Virus record (IMG/VR): IMGVR_UViG_3300042484_001840
Location: 81,043 to 145,042 of that record
Origin: a virus
Length of the DNA: 64,000 bases
Direction: 5' to 3' (one strand)
This document shows positions 20,740-53,514 of the stretch, piece after piece (the first letter of the stretch is position 1; the number at the start of each line of letters is the position of its first letter). A model generated the notes under the pieces. The model made no database searches, was not told the DNA's origin, and saw only the letters and a list, made by a program, of their open reading frames with translations. The position numbers and the translations under genes were made by a program.

Positions 20740-21048
20740 TCATTGCTGACTCGTGGAAACTTTTGTTCTGTTCCGTAACCCAATCATTGCGGACAAATAA
20801 AATCCTGCCGCGTGACGCTCCATCTCTGTTTCTCCGCCCCACACGCCGTACTCGTGGTTTTTCCTGCCGTACTCTCGGCACTCTGCGGATACAGGGCATT
20901 GCCGACATATAGCGACCGCTTGTGCTTCACGCTTTACCCGTCTCTCAGGTCGCTCGGCAACCTTAGGGAAGAATAGGTCTAACTTGCCACTACAAATTCC
21001 CAACTTCTGCCATTCGGTATCTAGAGTTTGAGTGTCGTTGTCGGTCAT
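20740..21048 (-). CDS. whiB: WhiB-family Fe-S transcription factor
   Basis: C...LFF...CxxCPV...C, GVWGG.TE.ER. Confidence 0.92.
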   Translation of the reverse strand: MTDNDTQTLDTEWQKLGICSGKLDLFFPKVAERPERRVKREAQAVAICRQCPVSAECREYGRKNHEYGVWGGETEMERHAAGFYLSAMIGLRNRTKVSTSQQ

Positions 21049-33043: not shown

Positions 33044-33297
33044 TTTGATATTGCACTCACTCTCCGTGAAACACCTCGTTCTATCGGTGTTTTTCCTCCC
33101 CAAATACCAAAAATTTCTTTATTCTCTAAAGCGGACAACAAGCATTGTTCCCTGACTTTACATATACCGCAAAGTGTTTTTGCCTGAACCATCAACTTAC
33201 GACTTTCGCGACTGTTCATTTCTTTTGGGTACCACCATTCTTGTGGTTGCCCCTTGCACATGGCATCTTTAGCCCAATCGTTATTTTTGAATTCCAT
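33040..33297 (-). CDS. whiB: WhiB-family Fe-S transcription factor (second copy)
   Basis: WxxxAxC...CxxCxV..C...GIWGGKTPxER; GGAGG RBS. Confidence 0.9.
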   Translation of the reverse strand: MEFKNNDWAKDAMCKGQPQEWWYPKEMNSRESRKLMVQAKTLCGICKVREQCLLSALENKEIFGIWGGKTPIERGVSRRVSAISK

Positions 33298-43867: not shown

Positions 43868-44128
43868 TTAAATGACAGAATTATTATATGATGGAACTAC
43901 AAAAGTATCTGTTTCGGGATCGTATGTGTAACCAATTCCTGGATAACATCCACGGAAGTTAGCATTATATGATGCCTGAATCCATGTCCCTCCCCCGAAG
44001 AGGTTAGTGCAGAAAGCAATACCAATCTCTTCTGATTCATTACCATCTTCATCAAAAATATCAAAGTTGTTAACAACAATAATCTGTACTACCTGGTTAA
44101 GTTCGTCTAACTGAGCAAAATGTGCCAT
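43868..44128 (-). CDS. tail-fibre-associated protein (MAHFA...WxQTSYN-type family)
   Basis: MAHFAQLD...WIQASYN..FR..YPGIGYTYD; follows a Gly-rich gene. Confidence 0.8.
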   Translation of the reverse strand: MAHFAQLDELNQVVQIIVVNNFDIFDEDGNESEEIGIAFCTNLFGGGTWIQASYNANFRGCYPGIGYTYDPETDTFVVPSYNNSVI

Positions 44129-45126
44129 TATGCCTCCCATCCGATAAACACTACGCCACTTCCGCCTGAGCCACCAGACCCCGAGTTACCAGCACCGCCT
44201 CCGCCACCACCATGATTTGCTAATCCAGCACTTGCAGCAAATACACTTCCATAAGTTCCACCACTACCACCATTACCACCACTACCTGTTGCAAGTCCTC
44301 TACCATAAGTTAAACCATTGTTTGCTTCATCTTGTGCGCCGCCGCCACCACCCGAACTACATGCGGTACTTGTTACAAATCCTGCAAAACCAGGACTTAT
44401 TCCAATACCACCGTTACCACCAGTTCCTGTTCCAGTTGATACTGTGGCGTTTGAACCAGCGGTTAGGGCACCACCTCCACCACCACCACCAAAAGTACCT
44501 GTACCAGAACCACTGTTGTATCCTGTTCCTCCACCGTATCCTTGAGAACCTATCCAAGTAATTGCTGGGGCTGGTGGAAATGCGTGACTACCGCCACCAC
44601 CGCAACCACCCGCTGCACCAGAAGTGCTTGGATGCCAACCTTGACCACCACCACCACCAATAGCAACCGTTAAAGGATCAAGAAGGCTGTTACAAATAGA
44701 AGTAGTAATTCCCATGCTTCCACCTGTACTTGAACCAGATGAACCACCAGCACCCCCCGCACCAACAACAATAGTGTAAGTTCCGACGGGTACATTTGTT
44801 ATATATTGTTGAAGATATCCGCCACCGCCACCGCCACCACCTGCTCTTAGTACACCAGAATCAGCACCTGCGCCACCTCCACCACCACCACACGCAAACA
44901 CTCTCAATACACCACCACCATTAACTACAGTAAAAGTACCTGAACCATTCCATTTTGCAATGTTGTAGTTAACACCAGATACAGCGACAGTAGTTACTGA
45001 TGCTGCACCAGTAGTGGTAATTGTATAGTTTGCCTGCTTTGATGGGACAGAAATAGTTCCATTGTTTTGACCAAACCATGTAGACACCTGACTAGACGCT
45101 AAAGATTTATTAACTCTGAAAGTCAT
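44128..45126 (-). CDS. glycine-rich virion/fibre protein
   Basis: Poly-Gly tracts; GGSGVV C-terminus. Confidence 0.8.
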   Translation of the reverse strand: MTFRVNKSLASSQVSTWFGQNNGTISVPSKQANYTITTTGAASVTTVAVSGVNYNIAKWNGSGTFTVVNGGGVLRVFACGGGGGGAGADSGVLRAGGGGGGGGYLQQYITNVPVGTYTIVVGAGGAGGSSGSSTGGSMGITTSICNSLLDPLTVAIGGGGGQGWHPSTSGAAGGCGGGGSHAFPPAPAITWIGSQGYGGGTGYNSGSGTGTFGGGGGGGALTAGSNATVSTGTGTGGNGGIGISPGFAGFVTSTACSSGGGGGAQDEANNGLTYGRGLATGSGGNGGSGGTYGSVFAASAGLANHGGGGGGAGNSGSGGSGGSGVVFIGWEA

Positions 45127-46016: not shown

Positions 46017-46246
46017 TCTGACGAGCCTAGAAGTTCAGAAAATGATAGGAGACTAGTTAAATCAAAAACTGCTTGAGATACTTCCTCGGGGGGTAGTGAA
46101 TAATGAAGGCGACCTCTAACTTCAAGGTAATTCTCATTAGTAACGACCTGAGGCTCCATGCCCGCACGAATGGTGAGTTTATGTGATTCTTTTGTGCAGT
46201 AATCTCTCAAAACTTGATGCAGTTCTTTATGCGTTACTTCAGTCAT
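46013..46246 (-). CDS. hypothetical protein
   Basis: Operonic; GGAAGG RBS. Confidence 0.55.
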   Translation of the reverse strand: MTEVTHKELHQVLRDYCTKESHKLTIRAGMEPQVVTNENYLEVRGRLHYSLPPEEVSQAVFDLTSLLSFSELLGSSE

Positions 46247-46979
46247 TTGCTTTTCCTTCCAATACTGTCTCTGGCGGGGGAGGGCATGTGCATGGGGCGT
46301 TTGGGGGAATGCATCTAATGAAAGATGAAACAATCCACTTATCTGAAGAAAGTGGCATCAAGCCTTCATGAGGGTGAGTCCAATATGAAGGGAATAGTGC
46401 AACTCGCCCAGCAACAGCATCTACCGTTGTTTGGTGGAATGGGAAATTCGTCCCCCCACCTTCGCTTACGGTGTTGAGATAAAGAATCAGACCCAAAGTC
46501 CTCGTCTCAGAACCACCGAGCCAAGGCGCTCCATCAATATGCTCATTATAGAAACCGCTATTTTGTTTATATTTCTGAACTTGATAACCAGTATCTGAAA
46601 CCATGCAATAATCAAAACTATCAGCATGGCGCAATGTTGGAAAAGTTTCTTTATATAAATTAACTACTTTCCATATTTGTTCAAAAATTCTTTTGTCAAA
46701 TTCTAATTCTTTTTCTGAAGGAGAATTCGCTTCAACATTTAAGTTCCAGTCAGTAGAAACTTTTACGCGGAAATCCGTACCACCCATAGTTCTACCAATT
46801 TTGGAATAATGCGAATTTTCTTCACAGTGTTTAATTAAATTTGTACAAAAACCTTCGTCAAATACGCCATCAACATAAGCAATGGCAGATTGCCTTCCAA
46901 CTGGAAAGGTGAGAGGTGAGTTAAAGAACTTTTCTGCGCTTCCAGCAAAGTTAATCACTTCCTGAATATTGTCAGTCAT
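46239..46979 (-). CDS. 2OG-Fe(II) oxygenase (prolyl-4-hydroxylase-like)
   Basis: HID...LYLN..EGGxT.F...FP..WTHPH...K. Confidence 0.88.
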   Translation of the reverse strand: MTDNIQEVINFAGSAEKFFNSPLTFPVGRQSAIAYVDGVFDEGFCTNLIKHCEENSHYSKIGRTMGGTDFRVKVSTDWNLNVEANSPSEKELEFDKRIFEQIWKVVNLYKETFPTLRHADSFDYCMVSDTGYQVQKYKQNSGFYNEHIDGAPWLGGSETRTLGLILYLNTVSEGGGTNFPFHQTTVDAVAGRVALFPSYWTHPHEGLMPLSSDKWIVSSFIRCIPPNAPCTCPPPPETVLEGKAND

Positions 46980-47730
46980 CGGAGTTTTTTCTATTTTTGC
47001 GATAACGCTGTCCAACGGAACCATCTAATGAAATGGTTGGTCCATCCGACATTCCGCGGGCGTAAACATATTTGTAGTTTTCCTCGTCAGCAAATTTAAT
47101 TTCTTGAATATCACCAGAGCGTTTGAAAGGAATGACATGAGCAAGAGGTGTTCCGTAGCGAATAACAAAAGGCTCATCACCCTTTAAGTTCAAAACAACA
47201 TTCATGTGGTGGTAATAATCCGTATGAACAATCGCTGGGACTACATCGTAATTATTGTTTGGTTCGTAGGGAATCCCACTAATAATTGATGACCAACCCT
47301 TGGCGGTAATGAATGAATAAGGATTCACCAATTTTGGATACGGTGACTCTTCCTGCTTCCTATTACGAGTCATTGGACATTCGCCAGTTGTTGACATTGG
47401 GAATGGTTGACTTTCAAAAGGGACTAAAGAAAAAGGCATTTGCCCAATCTCTACTTCCCAACCACCAAGGTCAGGTCGTGGGTTGAAGGAAAAGTCTGAC
47501 CACGCAGGGATAATATATCCAAGATTTAAATAGTCTTGAACCCCAGCGCACTTGCGAATTCCATCTTTTGGAGAAATCTTGAACCATGTAGGTAGCGTTT
47601 TGGCGCTAGTGGCATATGGCTTTGCGTCCTCAAGCAGACGATTATCCATTGGGATAATTAGAGTCTGTCCTTCTTTTACGCTTTTGCGCATAGATGAATA
47701 AACATTTCGTGGCTTAGTTGTAAATTTCAT
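46972..47730 (-). CDS. DUF6065-like beta-clip protein
   Basis: IRKC...GYIIP.W.D, NP...T.KGWS, GTPLAHVIPFKR. Confidence 0.7.
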   Translation of the reverse strand: MKFTTKPRNVYSSMRKSVKEGQTLIIPMDNRLLEDAKPYATSAKTLPTWFKISPKDGIRKCAGVQDYLNLGYIIPAWSDFSFNPRPDLGGWEVEIGQMPFSLVPFESQPFPMSTTGECPMTRNRKQEESPYPKLVNPYSFITAKGWSSIISGIPYEPNNNYDVVPAIVHTDYYHHMNVVLNLKGDEPFVIRYGTPLAHVIPFKRSGDIQEIKFADEENYKYVYARGMSDGPTISLDGSVGQRYRKNRKNSDD

Positions 47731-50573: not shown

Positions 50574-52436
50574 TTATTTATTGAGTATAACATAGACATT
50601 TCCAGCACCACCAGTTCCAGTGCCACCAGTTCCTGCGCCAACAGAGGTGGTAATTTGAGAAAGTGTGGATGTTGATGGTGTAATGAATATTTTACCACCA
50701 GCGGGACCAGTATCTCCAATAGCGTATGTCGCCGTACTTGAAAAGGAACGCACGGGACGCACATAGTACGCGGTGGACTTGGCAAAGTCAAAAGTAAGGC
50801 TGCCGTCAAAATTCCAAAACGCCGCTTGGCTGGCGGAAAGTTCAGAAGAACTCCAATAGGGGCCAGACGAAAAACTTGTGTTTAAAGCAACTCTGTTGAT
50901 ATGCATCTGTTCTAGTTCATTATAGGACGGCAAAAACCAGTCCGATTGTCCGCCAGAAACTAATTCGCTACAATAAACAGCAGCCGATGATGATGCCAGA
51001 TTTCCTGACTGGGCAACAATATCTGCGGTGTTCTGTTCGCCTGTACCAATTGCTGTACCGTCAGCGCCACTAACTGACGCAATCTGGTTGCCTCCAGTAG
51101 CCCAAGTTCTACCAACTTGAACGCTAACAGGGGCAACCTCAAAATATTTAAATGGCTCTGTGACGACAATAATGGCACCGCCACCGCCATTATATCCAGC
51201 CTGACCAGTGCCCCCAGTTACCGCTGGGGCAGCCGCTCCACCCGCTCCGCCTGCTCCGCCTGCATATGAGGAATTTGTGTTGCAGATATGATTGGCGTGA
51301 GTGCTGTTGTGGGCGTTGCAGACACTATGGTGGGCATGATTTTGTTGGTGGAAGTGATGGTTGCTTTGTTGGTGGAAGTGATGGTTGCTTCGTTGGTGGA
51401 AGTGATGGTTGCTTTGTTGGTGAGCATGATTGACGCAGTGACTAGCATGTCCATGCTGGGTACAGTAAGAGTGATGGTGCCCGTCTCTTACATTCTCGTG
51501 GGCGTTGGTCCGAACCTCCTCGTGGGCGTTGGTCCGAACATTCTCGTGGGAGTTGGTCCGAACATGACCGTGAGTAACGCAGTTGGCAGTATTGGCAGGG
51601 GATGTGTGGTTATTGCACCCAGCAATAGTGCTAGTGCTGTTTGTTCCAGCATTGACAGTTAGGGTTGGGGCTGTTGCTCCCGTATTTCCAGCAGTACCAG
51701 GACTTCCCGTACTTCCCGCACTTCCAGAAGAGCCACTAAATCCAACTGCCGAAATCGTTCCAGTACCTGTGATGGTTTTAGCAATAATAACCGCTAATGC
51801 GCCACCATTACCACCTGTTCCGCCAGCCCCTCCAACTCCTGCTGTTGCGCCCGTTGCCGTACCAGAGTTGCCTGTATAGCCTTTTCCACCAGAAGCGCCC
51901 TCGGTATTGGCGTTGGGTGAGTATGCGCCTGCGCTTCCTGCTGTGCCTGCCTTGCCAGACCAAGTGTCAGCGTTGGTTAATGCCGCTGTTGTATTTCCAG
52001 TGCTTCCTGCTATACCAGCAGAGCCTCCACGAACCGACGCTAGTCCACCCACCTGAACAGGAGACGAATCTAAAACCAATCCATAGATATTTTCTGTGAC
52101 CCACGATGGGGCGGAGTTTGCTGATGACCCCGCGCCAATGCCACCTAAAACATTAGAAACATTTGACGATGTTGTTACCGCAAATATTGTTCCCGTGGTC
52201 GTCCCCGTATTTACGGAAATAGTCCCATTTAGGGTGAGGGTATTTTTGACAAATATTTTATATCCACTACAAGTTAATGTTACCCCGACATTAACTGTCA
52301 GGTTATTGTAATACTTATCCGATGTCAGGGTTGTATTTCCAGTAATAGTTACATCACCATCAGTGCCCTGACCATAAATAGCGTCATTGCCTGTTCGTTG
52401 AGTTGTTGATGAGCCGTAACTAAATAATCCACTCAT
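50574..52436 (-). CDS. Gly-rich virion protein with His/Cys hairpin and DUF1566/C-type-lectin-like module
   Basis: Gly-rich arms, 8-aa His repeats, DWFLPS..EL...YWSSSE...VRPVRSF. Confidence 0.82.
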   Translation of the reverse strand: MSGLFSYGSSTTQRTGNDAIYGQGTDGDVTITGNTTLTSDKYYNNLTVNVGVTLTCSGYKIFVKNTLTLNGTISVNTGTTTGTIFAVTTSSNVSNVLGGIGAGSSANSAPSWVTENIYGLVLDSSPVQVGGLASVRGGSAGIAGSTGNTTAALTNADTWSGKAGTAGSAGAYSPNANTEGASGGKGYTGNSGTATGATAGVGGAGGTGGNGGALAVIIAKTITGTGTISAVGFSGSSGSAGSTGSPGTAGNTGATAPTLTVNAGTNSTSTIAGCNNHTSPANTANCVTHGHVRTNSHENVRTNAHEEVRTNAHENVRDGHHHSYCTQHGHASHCVNHAHQQSNHHFHQRSNHHFHQQSNHHFHQQNHAHHSVCNAHNSTHANHICNTNSSYAGGAGGAGGAAAPAVTGGTGQAGYNGGGGAIIVVTEPFKYFEVAPVSVQVGRTWATGGNQIASVSGADGTAIGTGEQNTADIVAQSGNLASSSAAVYCSELVSGGQSDWFLPSYNELEQMHINRVALNTSFSSGPYWSSSELSASQAAFWNFDGSLTFDFAKSTAYYVRPVRSFSSTATYAIGDTGPAGGKIFITPSTSTLSQITTSVGAGTGGTGTGGAGNVYVILNK

Positions 52437-52438
52437 GG

Positions 52439-53155
52439 TTATACCAACTGAATATAGTTATATGTGCCAGGGTAAGCGCCATTAACGGAAGTGTAGACAT
52501 TTGCTGGCAAGGATGCTCCAGAGGAAATGACGATAATAACGCCTCCGCCACCCCCCCCTCCGCCTTCCGCAATAAAATTTGCTTTAGTTAAAGTATCAGC
52601 AGTACAGGCAATGTAACGAGCAGCACAAATAATCACTCCACCACCAAGTCCACCAGTTCCTCCAGCGCCACCTCGTAAATATGTGGGTCCACCACTGGCA
52701 GTTATTGAAAAACCACGAACAGCCTGATGAGGTTGTTTATAGTAATTAGCGCCACCTAGAGCACTTGTTGGTGCGGTTGCTGTTGCCGTGGAGCCGTTTC
52801 CACCAAGACTATGCGTAACAGAAACTGTCGCCGTGCCACCCTGTTGGATTGTTCCTGCCGTAGACCACCCCGTGCCATCAGCCCATCCAATACGCGATGC
52901 ATTACCAAGGGTTAATAGGTTTTGAACAAATATACGATAACCGTTAGGTTGGATTCTTACACTGTCACTAACAGACATGTTGTAACAATAAATGTCTCTA
53001 GTCAATGAGTACACACTAGAAGAAGGTGCCATACTTAAAATCGTCGTAGTGCCGTCAAAAACAACAGAACCATCGTCGCCAGTTCCATAAACAACATCTG
53101 GCGCGTCAAGGAATTGCGCCAATCCGTTTGAACCATATTTGACTACAGCAGGCAT
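52439..53155 (-). CDS. Gly-rich virion protein, paralogue of the N-terminus of 50574-52436
   Basis: Shared YGxGxDG..., GYxIFVxNxLTL. Confidence 0.78.
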   Translation of the reverse strand: MPAVVKYGSNGLAQFLDAPDVVYGTGDDGSVVFDGTTTILSMAPSSSVYSLTRDIYCYNMSVSDSVRIQPNGYRIFVQNLLTLGNASRIGWADGTGWSTAGTIQQGGTATVSVTHSLGGNGSTATATAPTSALGGANYYKQPHQAVRGFSITASGGPTYLRGGAGGTGGLGGGVIICAARYIACTADTLTKANFIAEGGGGGGGGVIIVISSGASLPANVYTSVNGAYPGTYNYIQLV

Positions 53156-53514
53156 CAGGTCTCCTCAATACCGACCACTGTCATATTAACAGATGTTGCA
53201 GAAGAACATAATGCCGTCAATTGGTCACTGTTTGTAGCGTTTGCTGTAGAGCCGTTGTTTGTCATAACCAAGGAACAGTTAAAGGAAATTGTCTCATTAG
53301 CCGCAATTGTCATTGCACTTAAAATATCGTGCGTAGCGGCTTCCGTGACATTTAATGGCTTGAGGCGAACTGTCACCGTCTTTGCTGCTGCCGTGGTATT
53401 TGTCAAAATAATTTGCTTGACGACTGTCGTTGTACTGATGGGGACAGTGTAGTACACGGCAGTTGAAGCCGTAAGTTGCGATGGTCCGACAAGTCTTTTC
53501 TGTGTTAAGGGCAT
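53155..53514 (-). CDS. virion structural protein
   Basis: YTVP..TTTVVKQI..N pattern. Confidence 0.75.
   Translation of the reverse strand: MPLTQKRLVGPSQLTASTAVYYTVPISTTTVVKQIILTNTTAAAKTVTVRLKPLNVTEAATHDILSAMTIAANETISFNCSLVMTNNGSTANATNSDQLTALCSSATSVNMTVVGIEET

Follow-up and report, generated by a model that had tools for sequence, protein, structure and literature searches.

A variable, histidine-rich insert in a fibre-region protein of a probable actinobacteriophage

P0001 is a 620-residue protein encoded on the minus strand of a 64,000-nucleotide stretch of viral DNA (positions 81,043 to 145,042 of IMG/VR virus record IMGVR_UViG_3300042484_001840; the whole stretch is called the window below, and positions refer to it unless stated otherwise), and it carries an extremely His-rich insert between residues Cys274 and Cys385. 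Comparison of related sequences indicates that a variable insert at this site is the hallmark of the protein family, and that the His-rich version is its common form. The build of the insert, its place in the family, the way it varies, its mosaic history and the genes around it are established, and we give an even chance to the explanation that it forms an out-and-back, very polar loop, which would be held by metal-binding His/Cys sites and possibly by disulfides that form after release. Fibre tips decide the host range of phages, and this family of fibre-region proteins has an extremely His-rich loop as its variable element.

The codons of Cys274 to Cys385 coincide exactly with positions 51282-51617, and the six Cys residues of this segment are spaced 11-38-8-38-11, precisely as described in an initial annotation of the window; the approximately 30 His residues that it reported among 112 amino acids number 29. 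The insert consists of two C-x11-C clasps, two 38-residue arms and a central C-x8-C turn, and the Gly-rich surroundings noted earlier are present on both sides. Each arm contains three copies of an eight-residue repeat (VRTNxHEx in arm 1, HQxSNHHF in arm 2) that stem from 24-bp DNA repeats, as previously proposed, and Tandem Repeats Finder recovered them as two tandem arrays (Table 1). His accounts for 26% of the insert, as compared to 1.5% in the open reading frames (ORFs) of at least 150 residues of this genome, and P0001 has no genuine His-rich counterpart among the ORFs of the 145-kb genome. The mean hydropathy of the insert is -1.46 and order-promoting residues make up 16% of it, while the pooled composition of 85 family inserts is H 20%, G 14% and V+I+L+M 8%. 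The insert is too polar for a hydrophobic core, and therefore any fixed shape must come from cross-links. In the 85 family inserts H-x-H is not enriched (613 occurrences, the shuffled sequences also averaging 613, z = 0; 8 against 7.2 in P0001), and a periodicity of 6-8 residues is the only pattern that stands out beyond composition. A second His-containing frame, a 114-aa ORF with 21% His that lies antisense inside a 332-aa gene, is most likely spurious.

The P0001 gene is real, with 236 homologues at E ≤ 1e-3 in a search of 5.8 billion proteins, and family statistics were taken from the best 120 of these 236 relatives. A His-rich stretch is present in 88 of the 120, in the same region of the chain and, in the members inspected, just ahead of the Gly-rich C-terminal flank; a conserved strand of the ...Y-V-I-L-N type ends most of the family. 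These inserts are 46-283 residues long and contain 9-67 His, and some members carry at the same site a His-free insert that is rich in Tyr, Asn, Thr and Pro. In 51 of the 88 inserts the His-rich part has no Cys, and therefore the Cys ladder belongs to one subclade. The six-Cys form is limited to the small group P0001-P0009, and a search with residues 262-425 only found seven other proteins; as a subclade feature, the exact ladder is of lesser importance, and what makes the case of broader interest is the variable His-rich insert of the family together with its link to a viral halogenase. The wider family comprises 3,040 cluster representatives at E ≤ 1e-10 from aquatic metagenomes, many of which match the lectin-like part only, and literature searches on His-rich phage fibre proteins found no description of the family. 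In other subclades (P0032, P0024, P0020 and P0036), CC-x7/8-CC motifs occur amid His, up to three in tandem and off-centre in the insert, and may be small knuckles, formed by metal or by disulfides and related to the central turn (C-x8-C) of P0001.

The initial annotation regarded the two arms as mirror images and proposed a rigid, in-register antiparallel hairpin with nested disulfides (C1-C6, C2-C5 and C3-C4), which would form a metal-loaded needle like the T4 gp37 tip. In an antiparallel ladder, the 11-38-8-38-11 spacing indeed brings the partners of all three Cys pairs face to face simultaneously, and the four inner Cys would be palindromic with a probability of about 2.6e-4 under random placement; however, this figure overstates the surprise because the arms are direct repeats in register. 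In a gapless direct alignment arm 1 and arm 2 are identical at 13 of 38 positions (shuffle mean 4.3, standard deviation 1.7), and none of 20,000 shuffles scored as high, although the resulting P value is inflated because both arms carry period-8 repeats. The mirror alignment of the two arms reaches only 4 of 38 and reveals no mirror similarity, nor is there any inverted DNA symmetry between the two 24-bp arrays. Furthermore, both arms begin with C-V-x-H-x-H and finish with H-H-S-x-C, and a 19-nt direct DNA repeat with a spacing of 144 spans both arm starts. The equal arm lengths can thus be inherited from a putative duplicated C-x38-C unit, and since the arms are direct repeats, 38 = 38 is no evidence for in-register pairing. 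Three Cys topologies fit the spacing equally, namely the nested one (1-6, 2-5, 3-4), local knuckles (1-2, 3-4, 5-6) and one closed loop per duplicated arm (2-3, 4-5).

Equality of the arms, which had been set beforehand as the test of the hairpin, does not hold among the relatives. When measured as the number of residues between C2-C3 and C4-C5, respectively, the arms are 38/38 in P0001 and P0005, but 36/38 in P0002, P0003 and P0006, 27/23 in P0004, 26/23 in P0007, 46/56 in P0008 and 20/40 in P0009. In favour of the hairpin, P0005 retains the 11-38-8-38-11 spacing despite having different arm-2 repeats. The anticipated co-variation of the arms is borne out to the extent that they tend to lengthen or shorten jointly, with short arms paired with short ones and long with long in P0004, P0007 and P0008; however, equality is not kept, and the hand-calculated correlation (r about 0.67, six distinct values) is not significant.

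Sequence identity is distributed very unevenly along the protein. P0001 and P0002 are 99% identical in the N-domain, 100% in both clasps and 93% in the Gly-rich flank, but 50% in the arms, and when P0002-P0004 and P0006 are considered together, the Gly-rich flanks (93-95%) as well as the clasps and the C-x8-C turn (84-100%) contrast with the arms (29-56%). For arm 1, identity is 92% in P0005 and 22-50% in the seven other relatives compared. Synonymous divergence (dS) from P0002 amounts to 0.075 for the N-domain and reaches saturation in the arms, as does that of arm 1 from P0004, whereas the pattern is reversed with P0005 (0.61 in the N-domain, 0.17 in arm 1), although high arm dS may partly reflect misaligned repeats. 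These contrasting values imply that the history of the arms differs from that of the scaffold, and the comparison indicates that the arms are exchanged among lineages and undergo repeat-slippage turnover while the Cys clasps are fixed. A fixed frame with changing arms fits an exposed specificity surface. In gp38 adhesins the variable segments are short loops that are not His-rich. Like the S16/T2 gp38 adhesin (PDB 6f45), the P0001 family has a Gly-rich conserved frame around variable, recombining segments; unlike in gp38, the variation sits in a single long insert.

An AlphaFold2 monomer model of P0001, built with 69 relatives, contains a confident core with few regular strands or helices (predicted local distance difference test, pLDDT, about 85-98 at approximately residues 20-270, 385-430 and 595-620, with dips near 80-90 and 115-135). 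At residues 276-382, and in the lectin-like insert, pLDDT is below 50, so this check yielded no confident fold of the insert and no hairpin. Both Gly-rich flanks of the insert reach pLDDT 94-98 and are placed in one core, which suggests that the insert probably takes an out-and-back path from the scaffold. Foldseek found no match in the PDB at E ≤ 0.001, and a wide structural search returned only weak, generic matches to beta-solenoids and adhesins (best Z 7.1). The match to the polyglycine-II sandwich fold of the gp38 type is weak as well (6f45_D, Z 5.2, root-mean-square deviation (rmsd) 7.0; 9v85_C, Z 4.5), with many beta-solenoid matches at similar Z. An ESM Atlas feature search with residues 268-392 gave no usable match, and phmmer against all PDB chains at E ≤ 1 found a match of the lectin-like part and two chance matches, none of them gp37-type.

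In the T4 gp37 needle, HxH pairs of three intertwined chains hold seven Fe ions and no Cys is involved (Bartual et al. 2010, as cited in PMC11705849). The P0001 insert is like this tip, and like the 'Ferrojan Horse' iron fibres, in that it belongs to a phage fibre protein, follows a presumably out-and-back chain and contains His as proposed metal ligands. Unlike gp37, however, it is variable, of low complexity and Cys-bearing, its HxH pairs stay at the level set by composition, no sequence match exists among the PDB chains and the host is probably Gram-positive. The earlier comparison with the iron-bearing T4 tip is weakened by this, and the two are alike in working at most, with no family match.

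Based on these findings, we propose that P0001 is an adhesin-like virion protein with a Gly-rich scaffold resembling a solenoid, and that the insert is its variable element; the chain would leave this scaffold after residue 273 and rejoin it at about residue 386. The C-x11-C clasps, the C-x8-C middle and the nearby His clusters would most likely bind metal ions such as Zn, Fe, Ni or Cu; alternatively or additionally, the Cys may form disulfides once the virion reaches oxic water. The two arms would have been born by duplication of a C-x38-C unit, and would now change via the turnover of 24-bp repeats and recombination between phage lineages. Metal binding, the way in which the Cys would pair and the display of the arms on the virion, where they would face the host or the environment, are inferred. 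That some 29 His bind metal is plausible on chemical grounds, and the Nereis jaw protein Nvjp-1 offers a chemical analogy, although it is an extracellular animal material without homology to P0001. One account (PMC9465683) describes Nvjp-1 as intrinsically disordered and as hardening the jaw by binding zinc, and the P0001 insert and its flanks are likewise His- and Gly-rich. If the loop binds metal, each copy of the protein would bring tens of metal-binding His to particles that infect apparent actinobacteria, and the idea of 'phages as metal ligands' would extend past Gram-negative hosts.

Several points weigh against this explanation. Composition is what speaks for metal binding, and synteny is what places P0001 on the virion; the closeness of the two flanks is read from confidence scores, and a pLDDT below 50 is equally expected of a disordered region. 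In addition, misalignment of repeats may account for part of the high arm dS, and the Cys-free inserts imply that Cys cross-links are dispensable for the function of the family.

A possible, though less than likely, alternative is that the insert has no fixed fold and is a His-rich region of low complexity and intrinsic disorder. It would then serve as a spacer, or else as a tether that sticks to anionic polymers of the cell wall and switches with pH or charge, and the Cys would be a minor lineage-specific addition. The low pLDDT of the insert, its composition typical of disorder, the broad range of lengths and His numbers in the family, the many inserts without Cys, the rapid turnover of the arm sequences and the His-free low-complexity inserts found at the same site in some members are all consistent with such a region. 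However, the clasps and the C-x8-C turn are kept far better than the arms, which points to constraint on the clasps and therefore argues against a purely featureless linker, and the repeat phase is exactly kept between the two arms.

The genes downstream of P0001 raise a further option. Three small ORFs and the gene of a 234-aa protein come first, followed by those of a flavin halogenase, the 252-aa partner and a 2-oxoglutarate (2OG)-Fe(II) oxygenase, and the same gene order is found on 8 of 8 metagenomic contigs of His-rich relatives, 7 of which are clearly diverged from the phage of the window. The halogenase gene is the sole copy in the genome, and alignment to 6y1w and 6frl shows that its catalytic motifs (GSGTAG, the Lys in ATHKYG, GWMWEIP and EPLEATS) are all intact. 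The 252-aa partner has a predicted dUTPase-like fold (AlphaFold2 mean pLDDT 61, beta-barrel blocks mostly 71-84), which matches 14 dUTPase-type entries at Z 8.3-11.1 and rmsd of about 2.1-3.3 over 96-119 residues, the top match having Z 11.1 and rmsd 2.5 over 113 residues; its Cys61 and Cys118 are invariant in nine sequences. The Syn9/Syn10-type dioxygenase-halogenase cluster of cyanophages, the halogenases of which include VirX1 (PDB 6qgm), also contains a protein of dUTPase fold in which a cysteine is conserved (Iyer et al. 2010, PMC2938197). With its flavin halogenase, 2OG-Fe(II) dioxygenase and dUTPase-fold protein with conserved Cys, the enzyme neighbourhood of P0001 is a member of this type of cluster, but it differs from it in being a minimal set, one gene each, placed directly behind a His-rich fibre-region gene in the His-rich relatives.

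Linkage was counted for the 79 distinct genes of the family that are followed by 3 kb or more of sequence, 59 of them His-rich and 20 His-poor. A flavin halogenase lies downstream of 58/59 His-rich genes, at a distance of 0.3-2.5 kb, and of 1/20 His-poor genes; at the other 19 His-poor loci it is found nowhere within flanks of up to 10 kb. The dUTPase-fold partner (59/59 and 20/20, respectively) and the 2OG oxygenase (54/59 and 20/20) go with both groups. The pairing of His-rich insert and halogenase holds among proteins that are 33-45% identical. On a tree of the N-domain and the Gly core, from which the insert was left out, halogenase presence nevertheless changes once, and the His-rich members with halogenase form a single clade (Shimodaira-Hasegawa-like approximate likelihood ratio test, 94). 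The counts therefore represent one event followed by long co-retention. Repeated co-evolution of the His-rich insert and the halogenase was rejected in view of this one change, which leaves too few independent pairs for a test. A conserved Trp as the target of the halogenase was also rejected, the Trp of D-x-W-x-GK being present in only 21/58 halogenase-bearing members. The His-poor, Tyr/Asn-rich members at loci L097-L124 (IMG/VR) keep the dUTPase-fold and 2OG oxygenase genes and have no halogenase within flanks of up to 10 kb.

It is tentatively conceivable, at a probability that we would call low, that the insert is the substrate of these enzymes, with halogenation of His, Tyr or Phe and hydroxylation by the oxygenase tuning metal binding or cross-linking, a role that is compatible with the out-and-back, metal-held loop. 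The intact catalytic motifs, the nearly complete pairing that is maintained at only 33-45% protein identity, and the presence of one His-rich ORF and one halogenase in the genome favour this role. Moreover, halogenated histidine occurs in nature, as 5-bromohistidine is found in sponge skeletons (PMC8659048). On the other hand, the pairing is a single event on the tree, and the oxygenase and the dUTPase-fold partner also accompany His-poor members. Halogenase-oxygenase pairs are present in cyanophage P-SSM2 and pelagiphage HTVC008M as well; in P-SSM2 the halogenase is preceded by three ORFs that are all poor in His, and the HTVC008M halogenase neighbours are annotated as head, neck and tail, with no fibre-like annotation adjacent. 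We know of no flavin halogenase that acts on protein-bound His. The cyanophage cluster, furthermore, was taken as secondary-metabolite synthesis (Iyer et al. 2010, PMC2938197). As for the initial proposal that the segment is modified by the adjacent enzymes, the synteny supports it, although the pairing with the halogenase reduces to one event. No paper naming the natural substrate of viral flavin halogenases was found in the literature, and the constant pairing with a His-rich protein supplies a concrete candidate.

Taken one step further, the phage might halogenate, and perhaps hydroxylate, His and aromatic residues of its own fibre-tip loop, producing a metal-cross-linked, halogenated surface, and the insert would then be the natural substrate of the viral halogenases; we regard this as rather unlikely. 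If it were true, the surface would share its chemistry with animal jaws and sponge skeletons, from which alone it is otherwise known. Some residues of Nereis jaws are likewise halogenated.

The rigid needle with nested disulfides is improbable, and a strict mirror ladder is unlikely as a general rule. Direct duplication can explain the equal arms of P0001, relatives have unequal ones, the His-rich part is free of Cys in most family members, and neither HxH enrichment nor a gp37-type match nor a predicted hairpin was found, as described above. Furthermore, virion assembly occurs in the reducing cytoplasm, and therefore disulfides could form only after release. Mimicry of a metal cargo for host uptake, also suggested initially, does not fit in its outer-membrane, TonB-receptor form, since the host is probably an actinobacterium and actinobacteria possess neither an outer membrane nor TonB-dependent receptors.

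Table 1. Positions of the insert, its parent gene and other features of the window
Feature	Position	Strand	Remarks
P0001, 620-aa His-rich fibre-region protein	50574-52436	minus	ORF, translation and homologues; N-domain 1-135, Gly-rich core 136-273, Cys/His insert 274-385, Gly-rich flank 386-430, lectin-like insert 431-594, C-terminal strand ending YVILNK
Cys274-Cys385 module	51282-51617	minus	six Cys; 112 residues, 29 His, 17 Asn
Clasp 1, Cys274-x11-Cys286 (CNNHTSPANTANC)	51579-51617	minus	92-100% identity in P0002-P0006
Arm 1, residues 287-324	51465-51578	minus	VTHGH, 3x VRTNxHEx, VRDGHHHSY
24-bp array in arm 1	51490-51565		3.2 copies, 90% matches
Central turn, Cys325-x8-Cys334 (CTQHGHASHC)	51435-51464	minus	C-x8-C spacing kept in 9/9 Cys-clade members
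Arm 2, residues 335-372	51321-51434	minus	VNHAH, 3x QxSNHHFH, QQNHAHHSV
24-bp array in arm 2	51341-51422		3.4 copies, 96% matches
Clasp 2, Cys373-x11-Cys385 (CNAHNSTHANHIC)	51282-51320	minus	84-100% identity in P0002-P0006
Lectin-like part, residues 431-594	50655-51146	minus	optional second insert; absent in P0005-P0009
Lcl_C (DUF1566) lectin-like domain, residues 477-563	50748-51008	minus	PF07603, 35.1 bits against a cut-off of 34.9 (narrow margin); outside the Cys/His insert
P0001 residues 1-49	52290-52436	minus	Y-G-x-G-x-D-G region
2OG-Fe(II) oxygenase	46239-47024	minus	prolyl-hydroxylase-type Pfam family PF13640, E 1.3e-9
252-aa partner, predicted dUTPase-like fold	46972-47730	minus	start overlaps the end of the halogenase gene; translationally coupled
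Flavin-dependent halogenase homologue, 491 aa	47714-49189	minus	PF04820, E 4e-99
238-aa Gly-rich paralogue	52439-53155	minus	N-terminal 83 residues in common with P0001 (36% identity); no His-rich stretch
119-aa conserved partner	53155-53514	minus	phrog_20100
WhiB-family gene (record 69597-69782)			
WhiB-family gene (record 101851-102054)	20809-21012		
WhiB-family gene (record 114118-114318)	33076-33276		
114-aa ORF, 21% His	44217-44561	plus	antisense inside the 332-aa gene
332-aa gene	44128-45126		

The virus genome has a length of 145,042 bp and is estimated to be 98% complete. The assignment of the host, which is probable, follows from the three WhiB-family genes that this genome carries (Table 1).

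The gene of P0001 lies within a fibre/baseplate block, in agreement with the virion setting that had been suggested for it. The minus-strand genes ahead of it encode a baseplate-type protein, a 935-aa protein, a 445-aa fibre-like protein, a 1205-aa collagen-like fibre, the 119-aa partner and the 238-aa paralogue, and the placement of the block is based on Pfam and phrog matches (phrog baseplate; collagen-like fibre, 1205 aa). In one relative, T4 gp10 and tail-collar domains are encoded by the gene that immediately precedes it. The 238-aa paralogue, the detectable similarity of which to P0001 is confined to the N-terminal 83 residues, is encoded immediately upstream in most relatives.

Megablast and tblastn searches with the P0001 gene against 50,697 phage records found no match, and the N-domain alone matched only a Halorubrum virus 'putative adhesin'. 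This protein belongs to the archaeal virus HRTV-15 and is 54% alike over the first 49 residues of P0001. The Y-G-x-G-x-D-G region located there is common to P0001 and the 238-aa paralogue, and may represent a common attachment module.

The sole Pfam match of P0001 is PF07603 Lcl_C, within the optional lectin-like part. This part differs among close relatives towards its C-terminal end. A diversity-generating retroelement was rejected as the origin of this variation because a reverse transcriptase (PF00078) has no match in the nearly complete genome.

Finally, a 687-aa prohead protease/scaffold gene on a related phage contig (L010:1497-3560) combines Ferritin (PF00210), Peptidase_S78 and DUF6321 domains. 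The Ferritin domain may serve this head protein for the storage of iron, and the same phage has a His-rich fibre gene.

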